DNA of 64,000 nt from a virus, in IMG/VR virus record IMGVR_UViG_3300025005_000002, positions 96,001 to 160,000 of that record; one strand, 5' to 3'. Below the pieces are notes generated by a model. It saw only the letters and a program-made list of their open reading frames with translations, was not told the DNA's origin and searched no databases. Position numbers and translations under genes: made by a program. How positions within the stretch are numbered: the first letter of the stretch is position 1; the number at the start of each line of letters is the position of its first letter. Shown here in pieces: positions 9,450 to 42,211 of this stretch.

Positions 9450-9962
9450 ATGCCCCACAAAAATAAAGAGGAGGTAAAAGAGTACAAACGTAAATACTAT
9501 ATAAAAAATAAGGAGGAGATAAACAAGAAACAAGGGGTGTACAGGTGTAATAATCGAGAGAAAATACGTGTGCAGGAAAACGATCATTACAAAAAGTTTA
9601 GTGGTAAAATTAGAAAATATAGTAGGGGACAAGGATACAAATATCGCACAAGGCTTAAATTAGAATGTTTAACTCATTATTCTTTATTTGATTTTCCTAA
9701 ATGCTCTTACCCAGGATGTGAAGTAGCTGATGTTGATATGCTTGTATTGGACCATGTGATGGATAATGGGTCAAAACACAGAGAAGAAGTCAAAGCCACA
9801 CATGGCAAATCTAGTACTAGTTTTTTTGTGTTTTTAATTAAAAGCAATTTCCCACTTGGTATATAAGTATTATGTGCTAATCATAATTTAAAGAAAGAAA
9901 TTGAAAGGAAAAGGCAGATGATGTTACACCAAGGGATAAATACAGGGGGAGAGGAAAAATAG
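9450..9962 (+). pseudogene. HNH-type endonuclease interrupted by an in-frame TAA at 9864-9866
   Basis: LDHVMDNG...NFPLGI*VLCANHN; the paralogue at 24668 reads LCIDHINNNG...YPTEFQVLCWNHN. The frame stays open to TAG at 9960-9962, abutting the next ATG. Confidence 0.8.
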
Positions 9963-11144
9963 ATGTCTAAGGTAACAGTATTGGTTGGTGGGGCTTGGGG
10001 TAGTGAAGGAAAAGGTAAACTTGCGAATATTATCGCGGACTACTATAGTGTTCATGTTCGTACTGGTGCGCCAAATGCGGGGCATACAATTTACTATAAT
10101 GGGGATAAGGTTGTAATGCAAACTATCCCAGTTGGCTGGACCAATTTTGATGCCAAGTTAATAATTGGTGCTGGTGGGATGATTATACCAGAGCTTTTCT
10201 TTAAAGAGATTGCAATGCTTAAGAAATATGATCCTAATATTGAAAAGCGAGTTTTTATTCATCCAAATGTAGTGATTATTGAGCCTAAGCATATTTTGGC
10301 TGAGTATGGGCAGACTGAACCTTGTGATTATGCCCATAAGCCAATGGAGTGCCCACAGTGGCAGACAATTAAAGCAAATATTCAGAACGACCTAGTAGAT
10401 CCGTGCACTAAGTGTGATAAGTTGAGTGATAATGATCTTTGGAAGAAGGTTGGATCAACGCGTGAGGGTTGTGGTGCCGCACTCGCAGATAAGATTTGGC
10501 GTGGTGCTTCCCCAAGAGGGCTGGTCAAGTTGGCTGGTGAATGGCCCGGAATTAAGGAATTTTGTTGTGATACCACACTAATGATTAATGAGTTGATTGA
10601 TGATGGTGAATCAGTATTACTAGAGGGAACACAAGGGTCGGGTCTTTCATTGCATCATGGTACTTATCCGAAGACTACATCTCGGGATACTAATGCGGGG
10701 GGGTGGATTAGTGAAGCTGGGATTTCTCCATTGGTTGTCACTGACGTTATTGCTGCTATCCGCCCTTATCCTATTAGGGTGGCTGGTGATAGCGGTCCTA
10801 CGGGCTCACAGGAAATCACGTGGGCAGAAGTTGAGCGTAGAGCTGGTGTTCCAGAGGGAAGTTTTAAGGAAATTACGACAGTCACCAAGCGCGTTAGGCG
10901 GGTATTTGAATTTTCTAATGAGTGGTTTAAGAAAACGGCGATGATCAACCGTTTCACCGGTATTGGTTTAATGTTTGCTGATTACATCTCTGCCAAGGAT
11001 GCTGGTGTTAATAAGTGGGATGAACTTTCTGATGAGACCAAGGCTTGGGTGGCAGCATTTGAAGAGGAATACAATATTCCAATTGTTTGGATTTCAACAG
11101 GGCCATACAAAGAACAAACTATAATTAGGGAGGTATTTGAATAA
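9963..11144 (+). CDS. purZ: PurZ/PurZ0-type N6-succino-2-amino-dAMP synthetase (adenylosuccinate synthetase family)
   Basis: Short archaeal-type PurA fold (PNAGHT, LEGTQG, TTVTKRVRRV, STGP). GGAWGSEGKG has Ser14 where PurA has Asp; RPYPIRV replaces PurA KAY/FxTRV; MFAD keeps the guanine-binding Asp. Confidence 0.85.
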   Translation: MSKVTVLVGGAWGSEGKGKLANIIADYYSVHVRTGAPNAGHTIYYNGDKVVMQTIPVGWTNFDAKLIIGAGGMIIPELFFKEIAMLKKYDPNIEKRVFIHPNVVIIEPKHILAEYGQTEPCDYAHKPMECPQWQTIKANIQNDLVDPCTKCDKLSDNDLWKKVGSTREGCGAALADKIWRGASPRGLVKLAGEWPGIKEFCCDTTLMINELIDDGESVLLEGTQGSGLSLHHGTYPKTTSRDTNAGGWISEAGISPLVVTDVIAAIRPYPIRVAGDSGPTGSQEITWAEVERRAGVPEGSFKEITTVTKRVRRVFEFSNEWFKKTAMINRFTGIGLMFADYISAKDAGVNKWDELSDETKAWVAAFEEEYNIPIVWISTGPYKEQTIIREVFE

Positions 11145-11682: not shown

Positions 11683-12972
11683 ATGGGCTGGAGAGACAGC
11701 AGATTTGGTTTTATGAAAATTGAGGATAATAAGAAGTACAGAGTTCGGATTTTAATGCCATTTAAATGTAAGAAGTGCGGTGTCAGTGGGTATTATCCTA
11801 ACTGGCCAAATGTGACGTGCACCTGTGGTGTTGGATCTGATGATTTAGTAGAAGCCGAGTGCGTATCAGGTTGGTACCATCGCGTTCCTAGTGTATCAGA
11901 CCCAGTGACACGTGCGACGATTCGTAAATATCGTACGTTCTTATGTAATATTCAGGGTGTGGCCCGTGGTGGAAAGCGTGAATGTCAAGCAGATCTCTGT
12001 GGTAAGTTGGACCCAATGTTTAGGATGCTTGCACCTAGGGATCAGAGGCGAAAGCGCAATGGTGTGGAGGTCGATAGCCATTTTGGGATTACCCCACAGC
12101 ATATAATCACGGTCTACAGCTATGATGAGCAGAAGCCAATGGTATTGAAATTTGGTAATGATCTTCGTAGTGAGTTTGTGCGGATTATCACTGCCAAGAA
12201 TTCTCTAGCTGGCCGGGATATTATCGTGTGGCGGGAGAAAAATAATAACCAGACTACATACAAGGCAGAAGCACAAGATCCTTCTTCTTTTTCAGAGAAT
12301 GTTGATTATGGTTCGATCTCGTTTGATGCAGTATTAGCTTTTGAAAATGTTGCCCCAGTGAAGGTGTGGGAATTTGTTTCTACTGGCAAAATCTCTGGTG
12401 AGGGGGGATCAAGTGCCCTTCCTTTTAGTGAACAATCTAAGGCCATTGCTGGTGGGTTCCCAACTCAAGGTGATATTGACAAATATAAGCAAGCTCGTTT
12501 GCTCGTGGTAGATGTTGGTAAGAGATATGTCGGCAGAACTTTTGGATATTTAATTGATAATAATGAGCCGGATTATTTTAAGTGGCTTATTAATATGTCT
12601 AATTCTCCAGAAGTGAAGGCTGGGGCTGAGTGGATCTCTAGTTTGTATACTACTGGTAATATCCATTTGTTACTAAAGGTCCTAAATGATCCCCCAGAGC
12701 CGAGTGGTAATGGTGTGGGGTCTAGTGGTGAACCAGAACCAGCAATGAAGACTTCATATGTTGGGGAGCCTAGTGGTATTACTCCACAGTCTACGCGTGT
12801 TGATGAGATTAACAAAATTTTTGAGGCAAAATTTGTCGGTAAATCAGATAAAGAAATGATTGATTTCCTATCTGGAGTTTATGGTCAATATAAAAATGTT
12901 ACTGAATTGTCAATTGCATCATGGTCAGAAGAGAAGCTTAATGCGCTGGTTGAAGCATTAGCGAAGATTTAA
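11683..12972 (+). CDS. gp32-like single-stranded DNA-binding protein with Zn insert and C-terminal extra domains
   Basis: FMKIEDNKKYRVRIL...WYHRV...GRDIIVWRE...TTYKAE pattern of gp32-like OB folds; position directly before recA; CKKC/CTC insert. Confidence 0.6.
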   Translation: MGWRDSRFGFMKIEDNKKYRVRILMPFKCKKCGVSGYYPNWPNVTCTCGVGSDDLVEAECVSGWYHRVPSVSDPVTRATIRKYRTFLCNIQGVARGGKRECQADLCGKLDPMFRMLAPRDQRRKRNGVEVDSHFGITPQHIITVYSYDEQKPMVLKFGNDLRSEFVRIITAKNSLAGRDIIVWREKNNNQTTYKAEAQDPSSFSENVDYGSISFDAVLAFENVAPVKVWEFVSTGKISGEGGSSALPFSEQSKAIAGGFPTQGDIDKYKQARLLVVDVGKRYVGRTFGYLIDNNEPDYFKWLINMSNSPEVKAGAEWISSLYTTGNIHLLLKVLNDPPEPSGNGVGSSGEPEPAMKTSYVGEPSGITPQSTRVDEINKIFEAKFVGKSDKEMIDFLSGVYGQYKNVTELSIASWSEEKLNALVEALAKI

Positions 12973-12976
12973 TATT

Positions 12977-14062
12977 ATGGCAAAGAATGTAGTAGATGTA
13001 ATTAATTCTCGCTACGGGGCAACAACTATGATGTCTGGGGTGGACCGCACTGAGCGGTCCCCCATTCTTTTAGATTCTGGTGTATTAAGTTTAAATTTAG
13101 CTATTGGTACGAATGGGTTTCTTGGTGGTAGGATGGGGTTGGTGTGGGGAGAGAAACAATCGGGTAAGACCTTATTATCAACTTGTTTTGCTACGAGAGT
13201 CCAGAAAGATGGTGGTAAAGTGGCGTTCCTTGATGTTGAAGGGACATTTGATATGAAATTTGCTAAAAATTTGGGTATTGATCCTGCTAAACTTTTTATT
13301 ATCTCTTCTAAAGATGAAAGGGTAAATGAAAAGACTGGCGAATTGTTAGACCCATTGTTTGGCGAAGAATGGATTGATATCCTCATTGAGCTTATTAAAT
13401 CTAGGGAATACAATTTAATAATCTTAGATTCTATACCAGCATTGGTTCCAAGGGTTAAGATGGAAGCTGATACGGTAGATCAAAGCAAATTGAAGGCTGC
13501 ATCAGCACAGTTGATGGCAGAAATGCTTCCTAAAGTCAATTCATATTTAAATATGAATCCGTCGTGTTTTGTGTTGTTTATCTCGCAACAACGTTCAAAT
13601 CCAATGGTGACACATGGAAGCAATAGGAAGGCGGCTGGAGGGGATACAGCTGGGTTTTTCATATCTTATGAACTCTATGCTCGTAAGACTGAGAGTATTA
13701 GACGTAAAATTGCGCTTACACCGACTAAAATGGTTGAGGAAGAGGTCGCTATTCGGGTGGCGTATAGGGTTATGAAGAATAAGGTTGCCCGAGTGAATGA
13801 GCCAGCTGAGTTTATTGTTGATTTAGGTACTGGTGTAGACATAGTGGATGATACATTTGGTGTGGCTAAGCAATTTGGGATTATCAAGACTGCCGGTAGT
13901 TGGTTTTCATTTGAAGACAAGAAGGCAGCAGGTGAACAAAAGTTTAAAGAGTTAATGCAAGATCCCATAATTTTAGAGGAGATACGGGCTAAATGTGTTC
14001 AGGCACTAATTGGTCGTGATAATAATGGGCTAGTAGAAGAAGTATTGGTTGCTAACGAGTGA
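12977..14062 (+). CDS. recA: RecA/UvsX recombinase
   Basis: Walker A GEKQSGKT, FLDVEG, ILDSIPALVP, ISQQR, KNKVA, AGSWF. Confidence 0.95.
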   Translation: MAKNVVDVINSRYGATTMMSGVDRTERSPILLDSGVLSLNLAIGTNGFLGGRMGLVWGEKQSGKTLLSTCFATRVQKDGGKVAFLDVEGTFDMKFAKNLGIDPAKLFIISSKDERVNEKTGELLDPLFGEEWIDILIELIKSREYNLIILDSIPALVPRVKMEADTVDQSKLKAASAQLMAEMLPKVNSYLNMNPSCFVLFISQQRSNPMVTHGSNRKAAGGDTAGFFISYELYARKTESIRRKIALTPTKMVEEEVAIRVAYRVMKNKVARVNEPAEFIVDLGTGVDIVDDTFGVAKQFGIIKTAGSWFSFEDKKAAGEQKFKELMQDPIILEEIRAKCVQALIGRDNNGLVEEVLVANE

Positions 14063-15277: not shown

Positions 15278-15452
15278 TAAAGTAATATTGTGTGGGATAC
15301 AATTAATAACTGCGAATATTGCTGAATTACTTGCTACTAAATTTCCGGAGGGTACATTGGTTGATGTTACTTCTTTAAATGAGGCACTTACATATTTAAA
15401 TCTTACACTAGAAATGGAGATCCTTAAACTCGATGGATATAGTACGGATTAA
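15267..15452 (+). CDS. hypothetical protein
   Basis: Coupled ORF, start moved to ATG 15267. Confidence 0.55.
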   Translation: MKNDKVILCGIQLITANIAELLATKFPEGTLVDVTSLNEALTYLNLTLEMEILKLDGYSTD

Positions 15453-17482: not shown

Positions 17483-17652
17483 CTTATCAAGAATTGTGTG
17501 ACAATCCACATTGTTATATATTTAGGTATATTCTCGCTGATTATGTGGAGGAATATATCGGGCAGGGGTGGGAAATAGTAGGTATGATGCAAAATACGTC
17601 AATCGCTATTAATAGTGTGATATCATATATTATGGCATTAGAAATACAATAG
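17479..17652 (+). CDS. small hypothetical protein (57 aa)
   Basis: Manually translated MTYQELCDNPHCYIFRYILADYVEEYIGQGWEIVG...; ATGA-type overlap. Confidence 0.5.
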   Translation: MTYQELCDNPHCYIFRYILADYVEEYIGQGWEIVGMMQNTSIAINSVISYIMALEIQ

Positions 17653-19424: not shown

Positions 19425-19499
19425 TGCGGGGTCGCCAAGTGGTAAGGCACTAGCCTCATAAGCTAGTTATCGAGCGTTCGAATCGCTCCCCCGCAACCA
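19425..19499 (+). tRNA. tRNA with CAT anticodon (Met; fMet-like acceptor stem), CCA encoded
   Basis: TGCGGGG/CCCCGCA acceptor stem, GCC/GGC D stem, CTAGC-CTCATAA-GCTAG, GAGCG-TTCGAAT-CGCTC, A73, CCA. Confidence 0.93.
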
Positions 19500-21350: not shown

Positions 21351-22037
21351 ATGATTGTGATGTCTAGACAAGCAAGGGTCCTTCTGTCTAAAATTCAAGA
21401 ACAATGTCCTATGGTTCAGTATGAGGTAACAGATGTAGAATGGTATGCACATAGTTTTACGATTTCGTTGTTATGCAGTTGGTGGAAGGTAAAAAAGAAG
21501 ATTGAAGGTGGTGTTGGCGATACCCATACATGGTATCTCCCAGTAGTAGGATCGCAGGATTATATTTCATTAGTCGGGCATATAATTAGATTAGGTGGGA
21601 AGATTAAGCAAGCAAATTTGGATTGGTCAAATAACCACAGGCAAGTGTATCATTATCTATGTGCGAATATTTTAACATGTGATTTTAATCTTAATGAATT
21701 ACGTACTATTTTAGATATTGGATCAGAATTTAATATCCAAGATGTACAACAGGCAGCAGATAAAACACGTGGTGTAACTGGTGGTGATAATATATCTTAC
21801 CTTTTGGCGGTATTACAACGTAATAAGCAAGCCAAAGATATAAAGGCGCAGAGGGTATCAGAAGCGATAAATTTATCCCAAAGGTGTTTGAAGAAGATAA
21901 GTTCAAAGCGTAGTGGTGCATTAGATGTTACGTTAATGAAAATATCATTTTCAGATGCTAGGGAAACTCAAGAAGTGATGAGGAGAATGAATGCAATTCA
22001 GAGATCTTTCGGGAGCAATAGAGTTAGTAAAAAGTAA
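21351..22037 (+). CDS. hypothetical replication protein, possible DnaD-like C-terminal domain
   Basis: DVQQAAD...NISYLLAVLQRN resembles the DnaD/DnaB_C YxxxILxxW helix; directly upstream of the primase-helicase. Confidence 0.4.
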   Translation: MIVMSRQARVLLSKIQEQCPMVQYEVTDVEWYAHSFTISLLCSWWKVKKKIEGGVGDTHTWYLPVVGSQDYISLVGHIIRLGGKIKQANLDWSNNHRQVYHYLCANILTCDFNLNELRTILDIGSEFNIQDVQQAADKTRGVTGGDNISYLLAVLQRNKQAKDIKAQRVSEAINLSQRCLKKISSKRSGALDVTLMKISFSDARETQEVMRRMNAIQRSFGSNRVSKK

Positions 22038-24630
22038 GATAAGCCTTTTAGATTTAGTCAAACAACATACTGGTGAAGAAGGTAAAATCCAAGGTTTGAA
22101 TATTAGTTTCGCATGTCCGTTCCATGCTGAGCATGACCCATCATTCAAGGTAAATATAGCAGGTGAAATACACGAACATTTCTTTTATTGTTTTGGGTGT
22201 AAGCGTGGCGGTAGTATTATTGATTTTATTCAGTTTGCAGAAGGTATAGAAGTAGTTGAGGCCACTCAGCTACTAGCAGAACGCCACGGTGTTGATCTCA
22301 CTCCCTTCCTAGATGATTCGCAAGATCCCCGCCGATCTTTCTTAGCAAAAATCAATCAAGCAGTTGTTGATGTATGCCATGAAGCACTACTCGGGAATCT
22401 AGGTGCTTCATCTGTATTTATGATAGAGAGCCGGAAAATAGATATTGAGACCCTAAAGCTATTTAAAATTGGTTACACGGTGTCTACACAGTGGTTGCAT
22501 GAGAGTATAACCAAAAAATTAGGTGTAACTATCTCATATTCAGATTTAAAGGATATTGACCTATGTAATCCAATGATGTGGGATAATGCGATTGTGTTCC
22601 CAGTGTTTAGTAGTAGTGGGCACGCAACACACTTCTATACTAGGCCATTTTCTGGTAGTGTAAAATATGTTGGGACATCGTCAAATTCTCAGTTATATAG
22701 TGAAGATTCAATATATGGGTTACATATAGCTAGGAAATCGTTACGAGAAAATGGTTATAAATTGAATGTTGTAGAAGGCCAAATTGATCTGTTGCAGATG
22801 TATTCACATGGGTTTAAGAATACTGTTGCGGCTTGTGGCTTATCCAAATATACATCGTCGGTATTTATTAATGCGATTTCCAAATATAAAGTGAATGAGG
22901 TGGTGCTTATACCAGATGGAGATGAGCCTGGTAAACGAGAATTGATTAAGATTGCAGAAGATTTTACTGTTTATGGTAATATATTTGTGTCTTTTGTTGT
23001 TTTGCAAAACGGAGACCCAGATGAAATACTTAAAGAATTTGGTGCATCTGGGATTAATAATTATATTGTCAATAATATACATCCCATACATTTTTATATT
23101 GATAATGCTTACAACACGAATGCTGGGCTTTCGGATGAAATAAAATTTCTTGATGTGGTATGTAAGTATATTAATAAATTTAGTACTGTTTATCGTGAGA
23201 TGGCATCTAAACATATAGAAATTAAGTATGGTATACATGATGCATTAGATTATTTTATTACCTACTCGTTAAATCCTAGAGATATTCATGACAAAGAATC
23301 AGAAGCAACCATTATTAAATTAATGGTAGAAGACAAAGAATTTGCTTATACTGTACGACATGAAATCGGTGAGCATGAATTTTATGTGCGCAATAATGCA
23401 GATATCTATAAAACTATCTGTGCTTGTTTGACTAAATATGGTACAGTTTCAGAAGAAATTTTAATTAGTGTACTTAAAAAACCACTCCAACAGTACTGGG
23501 GTACGTTGCAGAAACACAATCTTGATATAGAATTTTGTATTCAGCAAGTTAAAGAATTATTTATGAGACGTAGTGCTAGCAAGGTAGCGGTTAGATTGTT
23601 GGCAGAGTCCATGGATATAGATAAATCGGTAGATGTGATTATGCAGGAACATCGTGCAGCAATAGTAGAGATTAATGATCGTCGTAATACGATGGTAACA
23701 TCATCAACGCAAGATTTGGCGGATCGGTTTTCAGAGTTATACATAGAACGTGCTCAGTCTGGTAAGACTATTTTAGGTACGCCACTTAGTAATAGGTGGG
23801 CCACACTCAATACAGCATGGTCTGGGTTGGAGCTTGGGTATGTCCATATGGTGGCTGCTCATACTGGTGTGGGGAAGACTTCGGTGGCGGTTAATTGGTT
23901 TAATGATGTAATTACACTATCTCAGGAACCAGCATTGTTTATATCGGCAGAAATGTCTAGGGATGACATTTGGACAAGGATGATGTCTATACATTGTGGG
24001 TTATCAAATACAATGATTAGACTTGGTAAATACCCACCAAGTTCTGTTGAATGGGAAAAGATGATGGAATCGTTTAAGGTTTTACGTGCAGCGCCAGGGT
24101 ATGTTATTGTGCCGAATAATTTTACAATATCAGAGATTATGGGTATAATAGAATACCACAGACTTAAATTTGGATGTAAACATGTATTTATTGATTATGT
24201 CCAATTAATTAAGGCTGATAATAGAGCTGGTAAGAAGTGGGAAGTTCTTGATGTAGCTAGTTCATTATTACAGAATAGGGCCATGAGTTCACGAGATCCA
24301 ATATGTATTGTCACAGTAGCACAACAGAATAAAGATAAATCTGAGATATTCGGGTCGGTTGAAGGTGTCGGTGGTGCGTATAAGCTAAGCCAAGATGCCG
24401 CGAAGGTGGTAATTTTAACTGAGAAATCTAATGAAGAGATTAATAGATTTGGTGGGAAACGTGGGAATATTACAATGAACATAGATAAAGTACGTATGGG
24501 CCCGTCTGGGATTATTGTAGATATAATGTATGATAAAGATCCCAATTTGGGATCACTTAAGGCTGGTGAAGCAGCCAATTGGGATGGGGAGATCAATCTT
24601 AATATAGAGATTGTGCCTGTCTATACCTAG
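21991..24630 (+). CDS. DnaG primase-DnaB helicase fusion
   Basis: CPFH...CFGC zinc finger, TOPRIM (VVEGQID, PDGD), AHTGVGKT Walker A, FISAEMS, VFIDYVQLI. Confidence 0.92.
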   Translation: MQFRDLSGAIELVKSKISLLDLVKQHTGEEGKIQGLNISFACPFHAEHDPSFKVNIAGEIHEHFFYCFGCKRGGSIIDFIQFAEGIEVVEATQLLAERHGVDLTPFLDDSQDPRRSFLAKINQAVVDVCHEALLGNLGASSVFMIESRKIDIETLKLFKIGYTVSTQWLHESITKKLGVTISYSDLKDIDLCNPMMWDNAIVFPVFSSSGHATHFYTRPFSGSVKYVGTSSNSQLYSEDSIYGLHIARKSLRENGYKLNVVEGQIDLLQMYSHGFKNTVAACGLSKYTSSVFINAISKYKVNEVVLIPDGDEPGKRELIKIAEDFTVYGNIFVSFVVLQNGDPDEILKEFGASGINNYIVNNIHPIHFYIDNAYNTNAGLSDEIKFLDVVCKYINKFSTVYREMASKHIEIKYGIHDALDYFITYSLNPRDIHDKESEATIIKLMVEDKEFAYTVRHEIGEHEFYVRNNADIYKTICACLTKYGTVSEEILISVLKKPLQQYWGTLQKHNLDIEFCIQQVKELFMRRSASKVAVRLLAESMDIDKSVDVIMQEHRAAIVEINDRRNTMVTSSTQDLADRFSELYIERAQSGKTILGTPLSNRWATLNTAWSGLELGYVHMVAAHTGVGKTSVAVNWFNDVITLSQEPALFISAEMSRDDIWTRMMSIHCGLSNTMIRLGKYPPSSVEWEKMMESFKVLRAAPGYVIVPNNFTISEIMGIIEYHRLKFGCKHVFIDYVQLIKADNRAGKKWEVLDVASSLLQNRAMSSRDPICIVTVAQQNKDKSEIFGSVEGVGGAYKLSQDAAKVVILTEKSNEEINRFGGKRGNITMNIDKVRMGPSGIIVDIMYDKDPNLGSLKAGEAANWDGEINLNIEIVPVYT

Positions 24631-24667: not shown

Positions 24668-25387
24668 ATGAAGACATGTACAAAATGTGGGATTAAGAAA
24701 TCAAACTTTGGTAAAGATAAAAGAGCAACAGATGGATTACAATCACAATGTAGTGAGTGTAAGAATCAAGGAATATTTAAATATAGGAAGGCATCTGATT
24801 GGGCTAATAAGGCATACAAAAAGAAGTTAATAAAAATATGTTCAAAATGTGGCGTGAAAAATCCTATATGTGGTTTTGGTAAGGATAGAAGGGCATCAGA
24901 TGGGTTAGAATCAGAATGTAAAGAATGTAAGTCTAAAAGAAATATTGAGTATGAAAAGACGCCAAGATGTAAAGAAAAAAGACAGCGAAGAGATAAAGTT
25001 AAAAGGAGCGAATGCAGTAAAAGACATTATCAAAATAATATAGATCGTTATAGAAAGTGTAACGAGATGAGATACAACAAAAACAAAGAAGAGATATCAG
25101 AAAAACGAAAAATAACAAATAAATTATTAAAATTTGAGGTTATGTCCCATTATTCTATTATTATTGGTGTGCCGATATGTGCGCATAAATATTGTCAAAT
25201 TACTGACATTGATATGCTTTGTATTGACCACATTAATAATAATGGGAATAAACATAGAAAAGAAGAGGGTATTACTGGTGGAGTAAAATTGTATAAATGG
25301 TTAATCGATAATAACTATCCTACTGAGTTTCAAGTATTATGTTGGAACCACAATATGAAAAAATACATGGAGTTAATAAACAAATGA
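24668..25387 (+). CDS. HNH-type endonuclease with two CxxC...CxxC repeats
   Basis: CTKC...FGKDKRATDGLQSQCSEC and CSKC...FGKDRRASDGLESECKEC; IDHINNNG...QVLCWNHN. Confidence 0.8.
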   Translation: MKTCTKCGIKKSNFGKDKRATDGLQSQCSECKNQGIFKYRKASDWANKAYKKKLIKICSKCGVKNPICGFGKDRRASDGLESECKECKSKRNIEYEKTPRCKEKRQRRDKVKRSECSKRHYQNNIDRYRKCNEMRYNKNKEEISEKRKITNKLLKFEVMSHYSIIIGVPICAHKYCQITDIDMLCIDHINNNGNKHRKEEGITGGVKLYKWLIDNNYPTEFQVLCWNHNMKKYMELINK

Positions 25388-25944
25388 ACAAATTTAAAAA
25401 GCTTCTCTGGGTTATTGGCCCTGCTGGAAGTGGTAAGACCACTATTTCAAAACAAATTGCCAGTATAGTAGGAGTAGAATTTATAAGTTCTGGAGACATA
25501 GTAAGAAGCTTGGCAGATGCTCATAAAGACCTGGCCAATGGTGACCTTTATTATAATGATGATGCAATTATGGGGGTCATAAATGATAGAATTAACACTA
25601 CGTCTAGTCAGATTATTATTGTTGATGGGGTCCCAAGAACTAGTGGACAAGTCAGATGGATTAACGAAAACATGTCGAAATATTTATGGAGCGTGGTATA
25701 TATTGACGCGCCTACGATTAAAAGAATCAAACGACTTATTAAAAGAGGTCGTGACGATTACGACAGTCACGATATAATATTAAAAAGGGTCTCTAAGGAC
25801 GAGGATAATATGAAATATATTGCCAATATGTGCCTTGAAGTGTTGGCCCCTAGTAAGATAAGATTTATTGATTCGATTATAGATGGGGATACTTCATTAG
25901 AGGTCGATAGATTGCTTACATTACTTAGTACGATGGAGGGATAA
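25384..25944 (+). CDS. adenylate kinase-family (d)NMP kinase
   Basis: GPAGSGKTT P-loop, ISSGDIVR, VDGVPR, RLIKRGRDD; start moved to ATG 25384. Confidence 0.85.
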   Translation: MNKFKKLLWVIGPAGSGKTTISKQIASIVGVEFISSGDIVRSLADAHKDLANGDLYYNDDAIMGVINDRINTTSSQIIIVDGVPRTSGQVRWINENMSKYLWSVVYIDAPTIKRIKRLIKRGRDDYDSHDIILKRVSKDEDNMKYIANMCLEVLAPSKIRFIDSIIDGDTSLEVDRLLTLLSTMEG

Positions 25945-26427
25945 ATGGGAGTGTCGCTTTATTTAGCTGGTCCTGTTGATTTTAATGAAAGGACTTATTA
26001 TGATATCATAGATGGGCTTATCGTTGACGATGTTCCAGTTATTTTGTTTAGGCCTGGGATGGCGTTTAAGGTTAGAGGAGAAGCAGATCCAAAATATCTA
26101 GTTGATGTTAATATGGAAGCTATGATGCGTTCAGATATTGTGGTATTTTATTTGAATGCTTCAAAAACGTGTGGGATGTGGATGGAGTCTATCTGGGCAT
26201 TAAATAATAAAAAACGTATGATATTTTATGCAGAGCCTGGGGTTCGCTTGTCTTTATATACAAGATGGTTAGTTGGTCAGGTTCATTCTGAATGGATTAC
26301 TGATATTGAGGAATTTGGAAAGGCTTTAAATAAACAAATTTCTCAGGTATATAGAAGTAGATTATTAGGTAATATCTTTGATGTATTACCTTTAGATGAT
26401 ACAGTTACTTTATTGGAGGAGGGATAG
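25945..26427 (+). CDS. nucleoside 2-deoxyribosyltransferase / dNMP N-glycosidase (NDT/Rcl fold)
   Basis: YLAGP strand, RSDIVV, TCGMWMESIWA with the nucleophile Glu position retained. Confidence 0.7.
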   Translation: MGVSLYLAGPVDFNERTYYDIIDGLIVDDVPVILFRPGMAFKVRGEADPKYLVDVNMEAMMRSDIVVFYLNASKTCGMWMESIWALNNKKRMIFYAEPGVRLSLYTRWLVGQVHSEWITDIEEFGKALNKQISQVYRSRLLGNIFDVLPLDDTVTLLEEG

Positions 26428-26428
26428 G

Positions 26429-26893
26429 ATGAGTGATCGTTTATTGGTGAAGGTATTGGAAGATGCACCATTTAAACCACCCGAGTTGAGACCAGCAAAG
26501 CCCGGGGATGTTGGTTTAGATTTAGCTGTGTGTATTAAGGAAGACCAGATGGTTATTTCTGCTGGGCAAATTATAGATATCCCATGTGGGATAGCGGTAA
26601 AATTGCCCTGGGGAACTTGGGCTGGTATCAAGTCGCGTTCGTCTACTTTTGCTAAGAAGAAATTGTTAGTAATTGAGGGGGTAATTGATGAAGATTATAC
26701 TGGAGAGCTTAAAGTATTCATTCTTAACCCAAACAAATATGACGTTGTGATTAAAAGGGGTGAAAGGTTGGCCCAATTAATAGTATACCCAAAAGTCTCA
26801 TTTAATGTGACTTATGTTGATGTATTGCCAAAGACAGAAAGAGGAGATAGTGGCTTTGGGAGTACTGGCGGGTTTGTGGGTGATTTAGTATGA
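26429..26893 (+). CDS. dut: trimeric dUTPase
   Basis: GDVGLDL, RSS, GVIDEDYTGEL, GERLAQL, RGDSGFGSTG. Confidence 0.93.
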   Translation: MSDRLLVKVLEDAPFKPPELRPAKPGDVGLDLAVCIKEDQMVISAGQIIDIPCGIAVKLPWGTWAGIKSRSSTFAKKKLLVIEGVIDEDYTGELKVFILNPNKYDVVIKRGERLAQLIVYPKVSFNVTYVDVLPKTERGDSGFGSTGGFVGDLV

Positions 26894-26947: not shown

Positions 26948-29900
26948 TTGAATACTATCAGTCCAAACGGATTAACAGTACTTAGAAAACGGTATCTTCG
27001 TAAGAAGGGATCAACCCACGAGACACCTGAGGAATTATTTTCACGAGTAGCCAAGGATATAGCAAGTGGTGAAGAACTTCCTAAGAAGAAGAAGGAAGAG
27101 TTAATTGAAGCATATACTAATATGATGGCTAATTTAGAATTCTTGCCAAATACGCCAACATTAGTAAATGCTGGCACTAATAATGGGTGTGCCTATGCAG
27201 CATGTTATCTACTAGATGTTGGTGACTCATTAGATGATATATTTAGCGTTTACCGTAAGGCAGCATTAATACAGAAGGCTGGTGGTGGTGTCGGTATGGA
27301 TTGGTCGAATGTCAGACCACGTGATACCCTCATTAAGTCTACGGGGTATAAGACACGCGGTGTAGTGCAGTTCATTAAGATCTATGCTGATTCCATGTCT
27401 GTGGTAGACCAGGGTGGGATTAGGCCATCTGCGAACATGGGTGTCTTATCTGTTCATCATCCAGATATTCTTGAATTCATTAATATGAAGCATTCTGGTG
27501 CTGCGCAAAATATGAACATTTCAGTAGCTATTACTGATGAGTTTATGAAGGCTAAAGATGAAGGTAAAAAATATAATTTGTATTTTCCTGTGTATGGGAA
27601 CAGGGAAAAGGCGGGCGAGTTAGATGCAAAAGATGTGTGGGATAAAATTGTAGCTATGGCTTGGCGTATTGGTGATCCGGGTATATTGTGGCTTGATCGA
27701 GCAAATAGGGATAACCCAACACCATCCCTTGGGCAACTGCGTGGAACAAACCCGTGTGTGGTTGGTGAAACGTTAATTGCTGTGGCAGATGGACGGAATG
27801 CTGTTAGTATTAAACAGCTTACAGCCGAGGGGAAAGATATTCCAGTATACTCACGTAATTTGAAAACTGGTCAGGTAGAGATTAAGTGGGGTAGAAATCC
27901 ACGTCTAACTGGTGAGAAAAAAGAGGTCTGGAAACTTACATTAGATGATAATTCAACAGTGATAGCAACACCAGACCATAGAATACCATTGAGGGATGGG
28001 GGTGAACGCGTTCTTAAAGACTTATTGCCGGGTGATAGTTTATTACCATTTAATACGTATGTGACGCATAAACGTGGGTGTGACTATAGGCAGATATGTG
28101 AGACGTCTATGCATAAGCCAAAAAATGGTAGATTGCGAGGAAGCAAACGGCAATATCAATTAATATATGATTTTTATAGTGGTGACACAAATTTTGATCC
28201 AACAATGCATGTGTTACATCATGTCTCATGTGATTCTACAGATGACGCATTTGGTAATTTATGTAAAATGACCAACCAAATGCATCAAGAGGTTCACGAC
28301 ATTACGGGTAATAAGAACCCAATGTTAAGGCTTAAGGACCCAGAAGGGTATGCGGAGCAAATGCGACAAACAATGGCAGGACTTAATAATCCCTCGTCGC
28401 GTGTGCGTGGTGCAATGCCGGTTGACGAATGGTATCAGGCAGTTGTAGCAGCCATAAAATTAAGAGTGTATACGCGGGCCCCGGGATATGAGAATGTGTT
28501 TCAATTATGTAAAAAAATGGGGATTCCCACACCAACTAAGTTTAGGTTACGAGCAATTGGGTGCCCAGAAGGAGTGGGGTTTAGAGAGAAGATTAGTAGA
28601 GATACCGGGCTACCAATGATGGTTGTTTATCCAGAGAAGAATGGATGTGCTGGATTAAATAATCCGTCTGCAAAGAAGCATGGTTCGGTTCCGGTTGATG
28701 TGTGGTATGGGAAGGTGAAGGGGCTTGTGCTTCGTAAACAAAGATTACCGACATGGAAAGAACTGCACAGATTTTATAAGGAAACTGGGATGCCTAGTCA
28801 TAAAAGATTCAGGCTTAACAGTTGTGGGGTTGATACGTTGGCCGAGTTGTGGGACCGGATTCGTGCAGAGATACTTGTGGAGCATAATATTGAGATATCA
28901 CGACAGACAAATAAATCTATAGGTACACTTGATAAGGCTGTTGCGTATTGGAATCATAAAGTAAAGTCTGTTGAATTTCATGGGTACGAAGACGTGTATA
29001 ACATTACAGTGGATGACAATCACAATTATTGTATTATAACGTCCTGGACTGATACCAAATTTATGGGGTCTAGTGGTATATGCAAATTTAATTGTGGCGA
29101 GACCTGGTTACTTCCTGGGGAAAGTTGTTGTCTTGGATCAATAAATTTGGTGGCGATGTTAAAGAAAAAGGTAGATGCTGATGGAGTGATTATATATGAG
29201 TGGGACTATGATAAGATTAATAAAACGGTGCCAATGGCAGTTAGATTTTTAGACAGTGTTCTAGATGTTAGTCCGCAACCATTGCAAGAGATTAAAGATG
29301 CGATGATGAAAACAAGGAAGATTGGTCTCGGTGTAATGGGGTTTGCTGATGCCCTGATTAAAATGAAGATACAATATAATTCGATGCAAGGACTTGAACA
29401 AGCTGAGCATATTATGGGGTATATCAATACCAAGGCGATGGATGTTAGTGTTGAATTGGGGAAAGAAAAAGGAGTATTTCCAGCCTGGGAGTTAGATAAA
29501 TTGGGTACTGCTCGTAGAAATGCTATAGTTACTACAATTGCACCCACTGGATCAATCTCCCTTATCGCTGGAGTATCTTCTGGTATTGAACCTGTGTATG
29601 CTATAGCGTATACACGTATGGCGTTTGGTGATAAGAAGCTGAGTGAATTGCATGCGGATTTTGATGAAGAGATGCGTAGGCGTAGTATAAATATACCAGA
29701 TATGTTTGATGTTATTTTTAATGAGCATAATGGCTCAATCCAAAAGATGAATATACCAGATGATATAAAACGTACATTTGTTACTGCCCATGACATTTTG
29801 CCAGAATGGCACGTACGAATGCAAGCTGCATTTCAGAAGCACACTGGTAATTCTATCAGTAAAACAATTAACATGAAGAAGGATTCAACAATTGAAGACA

Positions 29901-30508
29901 TCGATGAAGCCTACAGGCTCTCGTATAAACTTGGATGTAAAGGAGTCACGATATATAGAGATGGATCGAAATCTGCTCAGATTTTATCTTCAGGTGTACA
30001 AAGCCAACCAGTGGGTCAGAATGGTGGATTTGGACCACGGGTTAGAATTGAGGCACCGACTGGACGAACTTATGAAATACCCTTTGGATTCGGGGATGCT
30101 CTTATTACCGTGAATGAAGATGACATTGGTTTGTGTGAGGTTATTGTAAAAGCTGGTAGGTCTGGGTCGCCAATTTCGGCAGAGGCTGAATCACTTGGTA
30201 GATTGGTGTCATTATTGATGAGATGTGGTGTGTCTACCAAATATATCACCAAGCAACTTCGTGGGATTTCTGCTGGTGAAACGGCATTTTATAAAAGTGG
30301 GCGTACTATTACATCATTATCAGATGCAGTTTGTGCAGCGATAGAAAATCATATAGGATATAAAATGCCAAAGGGTAGTACGCCCACAAAATATAAATAT
30401 GAGTCAGTGCTTACATATAAACAAAATTGCCCGGAGTGTGGTAATTTGGTGATTCATCAATCCAAATGTATAGAATGTTCGGCTTGCGGATGGTCAAAAT
30501 GCAAGTAA
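26948..30508 (+). CDS. nrdJ: class II (B12-dependent) ribonucleotide reductase with intein
   Basis: [14 protein letters not shown][intein][35 protein letters not shown]; TSCPD-like domain (TSLSDAV) and terminal CPEC...CSACGWSKC; no beta subunit in window. Confidence 0.9.
27755..29092 (+). mobile_element. 446-aa intein in the RNR active-site NPCGE motif, HNH-type endonuclease core
   Basis: Begins CVVGETLI, block [15 protein letters not shown], ends ICKFN before +1 Cys; internal HVLHH...DDAFGNLC...HQEVH. Confidence 0.9.
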
Positions 30509-36402: not shown

Positions 36403-36429
36403 AAAAGCAAATATTTTATCGGGGAGCTA

Positions 36430-37624: not shown

Positions 37625-38675
37625 TAAGAGGAAAATATTATATGTTCTCGCCGACAGCCAGGGATGTGGACATTACCGTTGTCTTCTCCCGGCTTGGTAT
37701 TTGCAGATGATAACAGACACATATCATACTACATGTTCCTGGGAGTTGTCATTAGCTGACATGTATTGTTATGATATGATTATATTTCAGCGGCATTTTG
37801 AAGATAAGGTTAAACCGTTATGGGACGCAGCCAAAGATTCTGGAGTAATTATGGTATATGAAACGGATGATGACTTTTTTAATATCCGCCCAATAAACCC
37901 TGCGTATAAGTTTATACACAATAATGAAAAACAAAATGTTAGAAATTTTATGAAGATGGCAGATGCTGTAGTGGTATCTACTGAGCACCTAAAGAATCAG
38001 ATGAAGTGTTATAATAAGAATATTTATGTGATACCAAATATGGTTGAAGTGAATAAGGATTTTATTGCTCAACGGCCATATGATTACAGTAAAGAAATTC
38101 GTATCGTATATGCTGGTGGACCATCGCATGGTGATGATTTTAGGGGGATGGAGGCGTCTATAGTTAAATTACTTGATGAATTTGGTGATAAAATTAAAGT
38201 GTTTTTTATGGGGTGGGTACCAGAATGTTTGAAAGAAGAGAAACGTATCATACAAATACCTTGGCTAAAGATTGGTGAGTATCTCCATACTTTGGCTAGT
38301 ATACAGCCACATATTGGTATTTGTCCTCTGGAAGAAAATATTTTTAATAGAAGTAAAAGTAATATGAAATGGCTTGAATATACAGCAGTGGGTGCGGTTA
38401 CTGTTGCTTCCAATGTGTTACCATACCAAGAGGTTATTACTTCTGGGATTAATGGTGTGTTAGTTGATGGTCAAAGGTCACGTGATTGGTGCCATGCATT
38501 GGAGGATTTAATCAATAATCCAGATAAGATTAAACCAATGGTAACTGGTGCAGTACAAGTTATGGAAGAGAAACAATTAAATATTGTAACTAGTCCAATA
38601 CTTTCGAATGTCATTGGTACGATATTTAATAATGTGGCCGCAATGAGGGAACAAAAGAGAAAGAAGGCATCTTAG
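37602..38675 (+). CDS. GT-B fold glycosyltransferase (GT4-like)
   Basis: GCGHYR, YETDDD, AGGPSH, IGICPL...NRSKSNMKWLEY. Confidence 0.8.
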   Translation: MVMQKRTNKRKILYVLADSQGCGHYRCLLPAWYLQMITDTYHTTCSWELSLADMYCYDMIIFQRHFEDKVKPLWDAAKDSGVIMVYETDDDFFNIRPINPAYKFIHNNEKQNVRNFMKMADAVVVSTEHLKNQMKCYNKNIYVIPNMVEVNKDFIAQRPYDYSKEIRIVYAGGPSHGDDFRGMEASIVKLLDEFGDKIKVFFMGWVPECLKEEKRIIQIPWLKIGEYLHTLASIQPHIGICPLEENIFNRSKSNMKWLEYTAVGAVTVASNVLPYQEVITSGINGVLVDGQRSRDWCHALEDLINNPDKIKPMVTGAVQVMEEKQLNIVTSPILSNVIGTIFNNVAAMREQKRKKAS

Positions 38676-41600
38676 TGCAAAATTTTATACATACCCACTG
38701 CCATAGTTCATATTCACTAATGGATGGGGTCACTTCCCCGGCTAAGATGGTAGCACATGCTAAGAAACTTGGGTTCCAGGGTTTGTGTCTCACCGATCAT
38801 GGTAATATCTTTGGTGCCATACCATTTTATGAGGCATGTAAAGAACAAGGGTTGAAATGTGGTATTGGTATTGAGGGGTATGTGTCTAAGGAGAGGAAAT
38901 TTGAAGGACGGGAGAAACTTGGACATATAGTGTTAATAGCCAAAAATATGGTGGGGTATAAGAATCTTATTAAGATTGTATCAGATGCCTTTGAAAATTT
39001 TTATTATAAACCTAGAATGTCGTTGGATGTTATTGCTAGGTTTAGTGAGGGGATTATTTGTTCAACTGCTTGTTTGCATGGATTGATTGCTAGGGATGTG
39101 TATGATGATAAGGCTGATGAAGCGGTTGCAACATTAAAACGATTGCGGTCTATATTTAATAATGATCTTTATGTTGAGGTGATGGAAACGGGGGTTAAGG
39201 GGCAAGGTGGTTGGGCAGATCTGATGTTAGAAATGGCGGAGAAATTTAAGATTAAACCAATTATTACTAATGATATACACTATTTAAATAAGGATGATGC
39301 TGAAATACAAGATGCAATGGTTGCATTACAATTTGGAACGCATATTTTGGATAGGAAACGTGGTGTTGTTTATGGTGACTGGCCAGACGATGTGAGTAAA
39401 CCATCAATTTTGAATGCTGAATATTATATGAAGACTCGTGGTGAGTTGGAGAAATTTGCTTCCAATATCCCAAAAGTAGCATTTGATAATACAATGGAGA
39501 TTTGTGAGAAATTAGAAGATTATAATATTGAGTTTAAGACTGGTAAATATATGCCAGAACTGCCTAAGTCGTTTTTACCGGCAAACATAGAGACTAATGA
39601 TGAATACTTAAAGACGCTTGCTTATGATGGGCTAAAAAGTAAAGGTATAGATACACAAGAGTATAGAGATAGGTTGGAGTATGAGTTAGGTGTAATATCA
39701 AAACTTAATTTTTCTTCATATTTTTTAATCCTTGGTATTGTTATAAAGGAGGTACGTAAGCGTGGTATTTTAGTTGGACCAGGAAGAGGTTCGGCAGGAG
39801 GCAGTTTAACTTTATTTGCTCTTGGGATATCGGGTGTAGATCCAATAAAATACAAGCTTATGTTTGAGCGGTTCTTAAACTCTAGTCGTATTGATCTGCC
39901 TGATGTTGATATAGATTTTGAGCAACGAAGGAGACCAGAGGTTATTGATATTGTACAGCAAATTTTTGGAGCTGATAAAGTTTCTAAGCTCGCAATATTT
40001 AACAATATGACAACCAAATTGGCGATTAGAGAAGCTTTGCGGGCCATTGAACCAAATCGTAAAAGAGTAGATGAGCTTATAAAGGATCTTGGTGGTTTAG
40101 ATGAACTGGAGCCTAAAGAGTTATTTGAGGAGACTGCAAAGAGAGAAGAAGAAGGTGTAATGGTTGTCATGGATAAGATGCGGGCATTTAAATCCCCTCG
40201 AGCGGGTAAGAGTTGGTATGATTTCGCTGCTGGGCTGTCTGGCAATCCTAAGGCTGTATCGATCCATGCATCTGGGGTTATAATTTCTAAGGATAGGTTT
40301 AGTGATATAGTACCAACATTTAGGGTGAATAGAGAGTCAGAGACGGCATTGATGTGTGATATGTATGTATCGTCAAAACTTGGGTTGGTTAAATTTGATT
40401 TGCTTGGTTTGACTACCCTTGATATTATTAAGATAACTTGCGAAATGATTAAAGAGAACCATGGCATAGATATTGATCCTTATGCCTTGCCGTTTGATGA
40501 CCAAAAAACGTTTGCGTTATTTCAGGCTGGGAATACATGTAGAGTATTTCAAGCTGAAGGAGATGGGTTCACCAATATGATGAAGGGATTGGTCCCAACC
40601 GAGTTCGAACATATTATTGCTATGAATGCCCTTTATAGGCCAGGGGCTTTGGCTTATGATGAAGCGATTAAAATGTCAGCCGCTGAAAAATATATAAGGA
40701 CTAAAAATGGTTTAATACCCCCAACCAAGATTGATCCATGTATTGATGATGTACTTGCACCTACGCACTATATGATGCTTTTCCAAGAGCAGATTATGGA
40801 AATTGCACGGCGTGTAGCTGGGTATACTATGGCAGAAGCCGATCACCTACGTAAGGTTATTGGTAAGAAATTGGTTAAAGAGATTGATGATGAAGGTGAC
40901 AAGTTTGTCGCAGGTGCTATTAAAAACGGAAAGAGCAAGGAATTTGCTGAATATATTTTTGGCCTTATTAAGCCATCAGCAAGGTATCTCTGGAATAGAG
41001 CACATTCTGCAGCATATGGAGTCATCACTTACATCACGGCATACTTAAAGGCTCATTATCCCGTAGAATTTATGTGCGCTAACCTTATAATGACTGATGC
41101 TGATCAAGCAAAGGTTATCATTGCTGATTGTAAGAAACTTGGAATCAAAATTTCAAGACCTGATGTTAATAAGTCTAAACTGTCATTTTCTGCTTCTGGT
41201 GATACTATATACATAGGTTTGTCTTCTATCAAAGGCATCGGTGAGACTTCTGCTGGTGCATTAATCTCTGAACGCAATAAAAATGGTGAATATAGATCAT
41301 TTGCCGATTTTATTAATAGAAATCGTAGTGTGCCATCTAATCAAGTTACTCAATTAGCATTGGCTGGTGGATTCTCATTTGATAAGAGTATAAATAGGAA
41401 GGATATAATAGAGAATATAGCAGAGATTAAGAAGTATATACGAGTAAAGAGCCTTTCTCCAAAGGTTGTAATGAGTAGATATACTACTGCTAGTGAGTTT
41501 GATAAGCCAGCATATAAAAAGGCAATAGAAACTGGGTTCCTTGGTTTGGAGTTGCCTGATGATATAATTTCGGTCCCATGGTTTAAGAAGCAAGTTGAGT

Positions 41601-42211
41601 ATGATTTGTCGGAGATATTAGAGATTGAATCGGAAGTAATAGGGCTTTTAGATGTTGATTCGGTGTTAGATATATATCAAGCATTAGCCGATTCGGTTGG
41701 GGCTATTTCACTTACCAAGGCATTAACATTACCAACACAATCAGTTGTTTATATTTATGGAATTAATGGTGGGGTGGAGGTTATTTATCCAAAGAAAGAT
41801 CAAACATGGAGTAAATTTGGGTCGGTGGCTGTGATTGATAGGGAGGGGCTCCATCAGAGGAATATAAATATTAATACAGAAGATTTGGATGATAATGTGG
41901 TGAGTGGGGTTAATTATGGGTGTATTAAGACTTCTCTTAACAAGAAGTTTATCCCAATTATTGTAAAGGGTATTGTAAAATATAGTAATAAGCGTGGTAA
42001 GGGGTTAACTTTGGTAGGGAAGCCCACATTGCCACAGCAAGGGATTAAGGTTAAAAATATTGGATTTATGAAGGCCCCATCTATGATGGATAAGATAATT
42101 ATTAGTAAAGTTTGTGGAGACCTTGGGAGTATCGATATACTTACTAATGATATAATTAAATCGCTCGTGGGTATAGTGGGACCGACAATATTTGCGAATA
42201 TACGGGAGTAA
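38675..42211 (+). CDS. dnaE: DNA polymerase III alpha subunit (family C)
   Basis: PHP domain HTHCHSSYSLMDG, TDHG; GPGRGSAGGS, PDVDIDF, HASGV, KFDLLGL, NALYRPG, FQEQIM, NRAHS. Confidence 0.95.
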   Translation: MQNFIHTHCHSSYSLMDGVTSPAKMVAHAKKLGFQGLCLTDHGNIFGAIPFYEACKEQGLKCGIGIEGYVSKERKFEGREKLGHIVLIAKNMVGYKNLIKIVSDAFENFYYKPRMSLDVIARFSEGIICSTACLHGLIARDVYDDKADEAVATLKRLRSIFNNDLYVEVMETGVKGQGGWADLMLEMAEKFKIKPIITNDIHYLNKDDAEIQDAMVALQFGTHILDRKRGVVYGDWPDDVSKPSILNAEYYMKTRGELEKFASNIPKVAFDNTMEICEKLEDYNIEFKTGKYMPELPKSFLPANIETNDEYLKTLAYDGLKSKGIDTQEYRDRLEYELGVISKLNFSSYFLILGIVIKEVRKRGILVGPGRGSAGGSLTLFALGISGVDPIKYKLMFERFLNSSRIDLPDVDIDFEQRRRPEVIDIVQQIFGADKVSKLAIFNNMTTKLAIREALRAIEPNRKRVDELIKDLGGLDELEPKELFEETAKREEEGVMVVMDKMRAFKSPRAGKSWYDFAAGLSGNPKAVSIHASGVIISKDRFSDIVPTFRVNRESETALMCDMYVSSKLGLVKFDLLGLTTLDIIKITCEMIKENHGIDIDPYALPFDDQKTFALFQAGNTCRVFQAEGDGFTNMMKGLVPTEFEHIIAMNALYRPGALAYDEAIKMSAAEKYIRTKNGLIPPTKIDPCIDDVLAPTHYMMLFQEQIMEIARRVAGYTMAEADHLRKVIGKKLVKEIDDEGDKFVAGAIKNGKSKEFAEYIFGLIKPSARYLWNRAHSAAYGVITYITAYLKAHYPVEFMCANLIMTDADQAKVIIADCKKLGIKISRPDVNKSKLSFSASGDTIYIGLSSIKGIGETSAGALISERNKNGEYRSFADFINRNRSVPSNQVTQLALAGGFSFDKSINRKDIIENIAEIKKYIRVKSLSPKVVMSRYTTASEFDKPAYKKAIETGFLGLELPDDIISVPWFKKQVEYDLSEILEIESEVIGLLDVDSVLDIYQALADSVGAISLTKALTLPTQSVVYIYGINGGVEVIYPKKDQTWSKFGSVAVIDREGLHQRNININTEDLDDNVVSGVNYGCIKTSLNKKFIPIIVKGIVKYSNKRGKGLTLVGKPTLPQQGIKVKNIGFMKAPSMMDKIIISKVCGDLGSIDILTNDIIKSLVGIVGPTIFANIRE

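Follow-up and report, generated by a model that had tools for sequence, protein, structure and literature searches.

Does a large virus known from a metagenome make 2-aminoadenine (Z) nucleotides, and does Z replace adenine (A) in its DNA? This question is raised by a purZ-like gene (product P0001) in a 64,000-nucleotide stretch of DNA, hereafter the window, which corresponds to bases 96001-160000 of the 178,008-bp IMG/VR virus record IMGVR_UViG_3300025005_000002 (CheckV completeness estimate of ~92%). An initial annotation of the window had read this gene as encoding a PurZ0-type enzyme, in the replication operon of a phage that may carry Z in its DNA. Using a combination of methods (profile searches, structure-aware alignment, structure prediction, maximum-likelihood trees and genome-wide searches for partner genes), we found that P0001 bears the residue signature of the PurZ family in a previously uncharacterised clade, and that the same genome encodes DmtZ-like and DutZ-like proteins next to an adenylate-kinase-like protein. 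We propose that P0001 is a PurZ-family synthase feeding a Z-nucleotide pathway, with Z replacing A in the phage DNA by way of a DnaE replicase; judging from the sequence, we give this reading a probability of about 0.68.

The PurZ-like synthetase and its relatives

The gene and the features of its product discussed below are as follows (positions are those of the window).

9963..11144, plus strand: PurZ-family synthetase gene (P0001), 393 amino acids, ATG at 9963
9945..9954, plus strand: strong ribosome-binding site GGGGGAGAGG, 8 nucleotides before the ATG of the purZ-like gene
10002..10004, plus strand: codon 14, AGT (Ser), where PurA has its catalytic Asp13
10311..10433, plus strand: clade-specific insert of ~45 residues with C121, C130, C148 and C151, a putative zinc-binding knuckle that immediately precedes the GST phosphate loop
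10761..10775, plus strand: R267 to I271 of the RPYPIRV loop (Lys and Thr in PurA)
10974..10985, plus strand: F338-A-D340-Y341, the segment for recognition of the phosphate-donor base, with Asp as in PurA and PurZ0, and Phe and Tyr as in PurZ

P0001 resembles adenylosuccinate synthetases far more closely than chance would allow (Pfam PF00709, E=2e-53), and it matches phrog_1211 ("2-aminooxy adenylosuccinate synthetase") at E=1e-67. Among proteins of solved structure, it is matched best by P. horikoshii PurA (5k7x, 9e-52), followed by the PurZ0 of Gordonia phage Archimedes (7VF6, 5e-42), phiVC8 PurZ (2e-27) and S-2L PurZ (6e-20). As modelled by AlphaFold2 (predicted local distance difference test, pLDDT, of 93; predicted template-modelling score, pTM, of 0.91), P0001 has the fold of archaeal PurA, PurZ0 and PurZ, with template-modelling (TM) scores of 0.81-0.94 against the structures of the three enzyme types and of 0.94 to P. 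horikoshii PurA. Its key motifs read GGAWGSEGKG (residues 9-18, with Ser14), AIRPYPIRVAG (residues 265-275) and LMFADYI (residues 336-342). The Ser codon was read directly in the sequence and its translation, and both the RPYPIRV loop with R267 and I271 and the MFAD340 segment are present in the 393-residue translation, just as the initial annotation had described them.

The following lines of evidence support the assignment of P0001 to the PurZ family, in the broad sense of Ser-type enzymes, and not to PurA. First, in a structure-aware alignment of P0001 with reference sequences of PurA, PurZ0 and PurZ drawn from annotated records, Ser14 corresponds to E. coli Asp13 (14 counting the Met), S-2L Ser23 and phiVC8 Ser14, while Arg267 and Ile271 correspond to the Arg and Ile of every reference PurZ and PurZ0 (S-2L R235/I239 and phiVC8 R230/I234 among them), where PurA has Lys and Thr/Ser. 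Second, the signature is widely shared by the closest relatives, for which we took the 120 best homologues from a metagenomic collection clustered at 90% identity and the 150 best cluster representatives at 50% identity: all 120 of the former have both Ser14 and the PIRV motif, and 143 of the latter have Ser (three have Asp, two have Gly, and two are fragments without that end). Third, the trees described below nest P0001 among Ser-bearing proteins. Fourth, P0001 scores under the cut-offs of every NCBI PurA model that matched, including the archaeal-type model NF003295 (276 bits, equivalog cut-off of 368). The PurZ-family identity advanced by the initial annotation is thus upheld by the Asp-to-Ser change, the Arg/Ile pair and the nesting in the Ser-bearing clade.

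A first maximum-likelihood tree (80 rows, LG+C20, rooted on E. coli PurA) gathered all Ser proteins in one clade, supported by a Shimodaira-Hasegawa-like approximate likelihood ratio test (SH-aLRT) value of 99, with a pair of Asp-bearing archaeal-like PurA as its sister. Within it, the reference PurZ0 (Archimedes, Wayne, Keanu and TurboVicky) formed one clade (100), the reference PurZ formed another (100), and P0001 fell in a third one of 16 rows (95). A second tree of 50 rows, obtained with a careful search, separated the Ser clade from Asp-bearing PurA at 100/99 (bootstrap/SH-aLRT) and recovered the P0001 clade at 99/98 (15 of the 50 rows) and each reference clade at 100/100, with backbone bootstraps of 44-69. 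The clustering with archaeal PurA, named in the initial annotation among the findings that would count against it, is not what the trees show. A tree in which the P0001 clade is united with the PurZ0 references is worse by 37 log-likelihood units, and the approximately unbiased test does not reject it (p=0.137). By sequence, P0001 represents a distinct PurZ lineage in a previously uncharacterised clade. Its best GenBank phage match, from Bacillus phage vB_BpsS-140, is only 31% identical, and a megablast search of 50,697 phage genomes with the 10 kb surrounding the purZ-like gene returned no match.

As to the phosphate donor, Asp340 of P0001 occupies the position at which PurA has its guanine-binding Asp (E. 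coli Asp333/334) and Archimedes PurZ0 has Asp305. The ATP-using PurZ enzymes read adenine with Asn297 (phiVC8) or Gln308 (S-2L) (PMC8342488). Phe338 and Tyr341 of P0001 are the counterparts of Phe295 and Tyr298 of phiVC8 PurZ, which stack on adenine (bioRxiv 10.1101/2025.10.22.683976); at the Phe338 position, PurZ0 has Met and PurA has Lys. The alignment thus shows a hybrid donor pocket, with F338 and Y341 as in ATP users and D340 as in GTP users. Since the guanine-binding Asp340 is kept, P0001 probably uses GTP, and ATP may also be accepted; we word the use of GTP with this reserve because the pocket is hybrid. The P-loop (GSEGKG) is in the PurZ0/PurA state, the canonical PurZ having D.Q.GSTGKG. 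Thus, the PurZ0-type label of the initial annotation stands in part, if PurZ0 is taken in the sense of Tong et al. (2023) and PMC12884076: Asp340, this P-loop and the DmtZ-like and DutZ-like genes of the genome speak for it, while the position outside the reference PurZ0 clade, in a separate clade with a four-cysteine insert, the hybrid donor pocket and the lack of a DpoZ-type PolA speak against it. More generally, position 340 is Asp in 67/80 rows of the first tree, where the change to Asn or Gln took place on at least three occasions, and most of the metagenomic PurZ-like proteins sampled retain this Asp (the "PurZ0 state"). Given this Asp-state majority and these repeated Asp-to-Asn/Gln switches, a two-way split into PurZ0 and PurZ, as derived from cultured phages, is too simple.

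The insert of P0001 follows a helix that ends near residue 114 and precedes the phosphate-binding GST loop. Most members of the P0001 clade carry it (~34-58 residues, with the pattern C-x8-C...C-x2-C), and every homologue insert of at least 34 residues has exactly four cysteines, except for one duplicated 81-residue insert that has eight. In the alignments, the insert is absent from the short forms and from the PurZ0, PurZ and PurA references. AlphaFold2 confidence across it is moderate (pLDDT 62-81), and the conserved cysteine pattern makes it a putative zinc-binding element.

The kinase, DmtZ-like and DutZ-like genes

A three-gene block encoding a kinase, a DmtZ-like protein and a dUTPase-family protein (gene dut) lies 15 kb downstream of the purZ-like gene, followed by a gene for ribonucleotide reductase (RNR).

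25339..25944, plus strand: adenylate-kinase-like nucleoside monophosphate (NMP) kinase (P0270; Pfam ADK, 8e-12; PDB adenylate kinases, 1.5e-8)
25945..26427, plus strand: DmtZ-like enzyme of the deoxyribosyltransferase (NDT) superfamily (P0268), predicted dAMP N-glycosidase/deoxyribose-phosphate transferase
26429..26893, plus strand: dUTPase-family gene (P0269; PF00692, 3e-25), predicted DutZ-like dATP/dGTP/dUTP diphosphatase
26948..30508, plus strand: RNR large subunit with an intein (RNR barrel and TSCPD domains), following dut

The block is tightly packed: the stop codon of the kinase gene abuts the ATG of the dmtZ-like gene, the ATG of dut (26429) is 1 nucleotide past the dmtZ-like stop, and the dmtZ-like and dut starts are each served by a GGAGG-type site within the preceding gene. 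The best phage match of the kinase is the adk product of Bacillus phage vB_BpsS-140. The RNR is probably of class II, because it combines RNR barrel and TSCPD domains; its Intein_splicing domain covers residues 278-695, and the barrel domain accordingly matches in two stretches.

It has been shown that DmtZ hydrolyses dAMP or uses it to transfer deoxyribose phosphate to the Z base, that DutZ hydrolyses dATP and dGTP as well as dUTP, and that dutZ occurs in 98/98 PurZ0 genomes and dmtZ usually does, the adjacent pair being a hallmark of PurZ0 phages (PMC12884076). Independently, a metagenomic association study tied NDT and dUTPase genes to genomes with S14-type PurZ (bioRxiv 10.1101/2025.10.22.683976).

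P0268 keeps Tyr6, Asp12, Pro37, Asn56 and Glu81, which correspond to Y6, D12, P57, N77 and E103 of Ghobes DmtZ and are invariant among six sequences; it thus retains all the mutagenesis-tested residues of DmtZ, including the unusual Asn of the catalytic triad. When the profile of its family was compared by hhalign with that of the DmtZ domains of Archimedes, Wayne and Keanu, the match had a probability of 98.3% (E=1e-14), and in its top three PDB profile matches, all of them NDTs, the catalytic Glu is aligned. From these profile comparisons P0268 is predicted to adopt the NDT fold; a single-protein search with P0268 found only close relatives.

P0269 has the motifs of trimeric dUTPases and shares 39-46% identity with the DutZ domains found in Archimedes, Wayne and Keanu. 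Among the 1839 dUTPase-matching phage records found in the 50,697 genomes, the best 40 all belong to PurZ0-bearing phages of Streptomyces, Microbacterium and Arthrobacter. The DmtZ-like and DutZ-like genes had escaped the initial annotation, and their presence strengthens its suggestion that the phage DNA contains Z.

The proposed pathway and its alternatives

A single DNA polymerase was detected in the genome, as listed here.

38675..42211, plus strand: DnaE-type DNA polymerase III alpha

From these genes, we propose that P0001 would convert dGMP, Asp and a nucleoside triphosphate into dSMP (N6-succino-2-amino-2'-deoxyadenylate), from which the PurB of the host would produce dZMP, the monophosphate of the Z deoxynucleoside. 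The adenylate-kinase-like enzyme of the phage and/or host kinases would then phosphorylate dZMP to dZTP, a step so far assigned to host enzymes in published work (PMC8342488). The DutZ-like enzyme would turn dATP and dGTP into monophosphates, thereby removing dATP and feeding dGMP to the synthase, the DmtZ-like enzyme would destroy dAMP, and the RNR would supply deoxynucleotides. Finally, owing to the depletion of dATP, the DnaE-type replicase would place Z opposite T. Clearance of dATP is by itself enough for full substitution in S-2L, the polymerase of which is non-selective (PMC8342488), so a Z-selective polymerase may not be strictly needed. On these grounds a Z-containing genome appears likely.

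Several observations weigh against this proposal. The record was assembled from a metagenome, and its estimated completeness is ~92%. The NCBIfam PurZ model NF038379 gives P0001 202.5 bits, under its cut-off of 300, and P0268 scores under the Pfam gathering thresholds for NDTs (20.1 vs 30 bits for PF15891; 17.9 vs 28.8 bits for PF05014). P0269 passes the ordinary dUTPase equivalog cut-off and could be a plain dUTPase; passing such models is no contradiction with a DutZ function, because DutZ still hydrolyses dUTP. Neither DatZ/HD, MazZ/MazG, DUF550 nor DUF5664 was detected in the 178-kb genome by family searches that included PF01966, PF03819 and PF04447, none of which matched, and PurB/Lyase_1 was not detected in it either. 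A DpoZ-like PolA was also missing (no PF00476 match in the 178-kb record).

Similarly, tblastn searches of the genome with S-2L DatZ and MazZ, with Wayne gp51 (taken as its DUF5664 protein) and with Keanu PurB found no match, and guanylate kinase, PolB and PrimPol were not detected in the genome. An open reading frame (ORF) at 18895-19269 was considered as a relative of Archimedes gp51, a match too weak and marginal to be used. In the searchable literature, we found no link of Z genomes with large phages or with polymerases of the DnaE type. Among 50 PurZ-bearing IMG/VR contigs, PolA occurs in 31, DnaE in three and dUTPase in 27. Two contigs from outside the P0001 clade, G021 (68 kb, with terminal repeats) and G030 (52 kb), carry PurZ, a DnaE-type polymerase and dUTPase without PolA.

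The alternative that survives best, which we nevertheless consider unlikely, is that Z (or succinylated dG) nucleotides are made and substitution stays partial, or that the pathway mainly depletes or remodels the purine dNTP pools of the host in takeover or counter-defence. It would agree with the lack of DatZ, MazZ and DpoZ, with the absence of any known Z preference of the DnaE replicase, and with the sugar-modification genes of the replication module, another DNA modification being then perhaps the main protection. It fits less well with published work, in which the pair of DmtZ-like and DutZ-like genes is so far tied specifically to Z-DNA phages, and with the full substitution that S-2L attains by dATP clearance alone (PMC8342488).

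Less probable again is that the kinase, the NDT-like protein and Dut form a general nucleotide-salvage set unrelated to PurZ, with Dut sanitising only dUTP and the co-occurrence being coincidental. The 15 kb separating these genes from purZ, the passing of canonical dUTPase models by Dut and the frequency of dUTPases in phages (the 1839 records mentioned above) would allow it; against it, the nearest relatives of Dut are DutZ proteins, the NDT-like protein has both Asp12 and the unusual catalytic-triad Asn of DmtZ, and the adk-dut pairing recurs in vB_BpsS-140, which has a PurZ-like gene. Lastly, an ordinary PurA-type auxiliary metabolic gene boosting AMP synthesis from IMP is very improbable: the best PDB (5k7x) and NCBIfam (NF003295) scores to archaeal-type PurA, the fold closest to that of P. 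horikoshii PurA and the GTP-type Asp340 are outweighed by the replacement of the catalytic Asp13 by Ser and of the Lys/Thr pair by Arg/Ile, by the score under the PurA equivalog cut-off and by the place of P0001 within the Ser clade, away from Asp-bearing PurA.

Returning to the Z-nucleotide pathway, we tentatively go one step further, with less than even confidence, and suggest that large low-GC phages may possess a third self-contained Z-DNA pathway. It would comprise a PurZ with a zinc insert and a hybrid pocket, a coupled operon of dZMP-capable kinase, DmtZ and DutZ, and a DnaE copying a fully Z-substituted genome of ~180 kb, maybe further sugar-modified. The Z-genome phages described so far are siphoviruses and podoviruses of 38-83 kb, which replicate with a PolA-type DpoZ or a PrimPol. 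If Z were confirmed in this phage, Z-DNA would reach a lineage of ~180-kb phages with a polymerase of the DnaE type, a family unlike that of any described Z phage. The distinct PurZ clade, with its four-cysteine insert and mixed donor pocket, would bear on the evolution from PurA to PurZ0 and PurZ, and a phage NMP kinase would be nominated for the pathway step so far left to the host.

Genomic surroundings and comparison with known systems

The initial annotation had also placed the purZ-like gene within the replication module, and we agree with it, since genes for UvsX/RecA-like, RusA-like, SF2 helicase and DnaG-DnaB proteins lie downstream.

12977..14062, plus strand: UvsX/RecA-like recombinase, in the conserved purZ-...-recA-helicase-primase module
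15433-16857: SF2 helicase (a RusA-like resolvase gene is also found downstream of the purZ-like gene)
21991..24630, plus strand: DnaG-DnaB primase-helicase fusion

The conserved order is purZ, two small ORFs, an unknown protein of ~400-550 residues, RecA/UvsX, a nuclease, SF2 helicase and DnaG-DnaB primase-helicase; besides the window, Bacillus phage vB_BpsS-140 has it, and so do two large metagenomic contigs (112 kb and 166 kb) that bear clade members. In a related IMG/VR contig of 112.6 kb, the PurZ of which is 84% identical to P0001, the kinase-DmtZ-Dut-RNR order and DnaE are kept, which argues against a chimeric assembly. The unknown protein of the window (11683-12972, 429 residues, no Pfam or PHROG match) always lies between purZ and recA in this lineage and has a counterpart in vB_BpsS-140 (tblastn, E=1e-5). 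We dropped it as a component of the pathway, its similarity being limited to a weak language-model resemblance to a gp32-like single-stranded DNA-binding protein (0.80).

The 166-kb contig L099 (JGI 3300009506), which encodes the four-cysteine clade member P0080, has a different partner set near the helicase: an 88-residue MazG/PRA-PH-like pyrophosphohydrolase (17379-17645), a 275-residue protein of dCTP-deaminase type that has Cys clusters at its C-terminus, and a Dam-like methyltransferase. The 275-residue protein was considered as a DmtZ-Dut fusion, which was ruled out in that it is of true dCTP-deaminase type.

Other genes of the window are worth recording. A 239-residue protein with PHROG matches to Lar-like restriction alleviation and endonuclease VII/HNH (24668-25387) is encoded between the primase-helicase and the kinase, and a calcineurin-like phosphoesterase (20654-21154; phrog_547, E=9e-38) is encoded just upstream of the primase-helicase. 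A tRNA-Met gene (19425-19499) and at least two HNH endonuclease genes (16841-17482 and 19518-19850) are scattered through the replication module, and a 984-residue ORF (50893-53847) holds an intein that includes a homing-endonuclease domain of the LAGLIDADG type. Standing among dnaE and sbcCD-like genes, the genes for an NDP-sugar epimerase/dehydratase, an RmlD-like reductase and GT1-/GT2-type glycosyltransferases (34224-38675 and 47230-48063) may point to a second, sugar-based modification of the DNA or the virion. The GC content of the window is 35-39% (~36% for the genome), and the GC skew is strong and uniform over positions 1-64000 (+0.23 to +0.32) on the strand bearing nearly all genes. 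Promoter and terminator scans of the window gave results no better than those for shuffled sequence.

Among the known systems, Bacillus phage vB_BpsS-140 (MH884512; 55-kb genome) shares the gene order purZ-like, ~400-residue unknown, recA, helicase, primase, adk and dut. Its PurZ-like protein groups with the wider clade of canonical PurZ and has Asn at the donor position, and no DmtZ-like gene is annotated between its adk and dut.

The archaeal short PurA of P. horikoshii (5K7X) is the best PDB match of P0001 in both structure and sequence (TM 0.94, 32% identity) and shares the GTP-type Asp; it differs by its catalytic Asp, Lys and Thr/Ser, where P0001 has Ser14, Arg267 and Ile271, and by the lack of the four-cysteine insert. 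The canonical ATP-using PurZ enzymes (phiVC8, 6FM1; S-2L, 7ODX; SH-Ab 15497) have in common with P0001 the Ser14, the Arg/Ile pair and the Phe and Tyr flanking the donor base. They are 25-27% identical to P0001, which departs from them by a P-loop other than D.Q.GSTGKG, by Asp340 in place of Asn297/Gln308 and by the lack of DatZ, MazZ and DUF550 partners.

The PurZ0 actinophages (Gordonia phages Archimedes and Ghobes and Arthrobacter phage Wayne; 7VF6; PMC12884076) share more features with the present phage: Ser14, a GSE(G/A)KG P-loop, an RxxPIRV loop, the donor-site Asp, no PurZ-type loop insertion after PIRVA, a pair of DmtZ-like and DutZ-like proteins, and neither DatZ nor MazZ. In contrast, P0001 is ~30% identical to their enzymes, stands outside the reference clade, carries the four-cysteine insert and has Phe338 for Met. 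Furthermore, the dmtZ/dutZ genes are here 15 kb from purZ and coupled to an ADK-like kinase, a DnaE replicase is found with neither a DpoZ-1 PolA nor DUF5664, and the genome is of 178 kb with 36% GC, versus ~40-80 kb and high GC for the PurZ0 actinophages. Most likely, then, the pathway is of the PurZ0 style (PurZ, DutZ and DmtZ, with no DatZ or MazZ), operating on a different PurZ lineage and supplemented with an NMP kinase of the phage.

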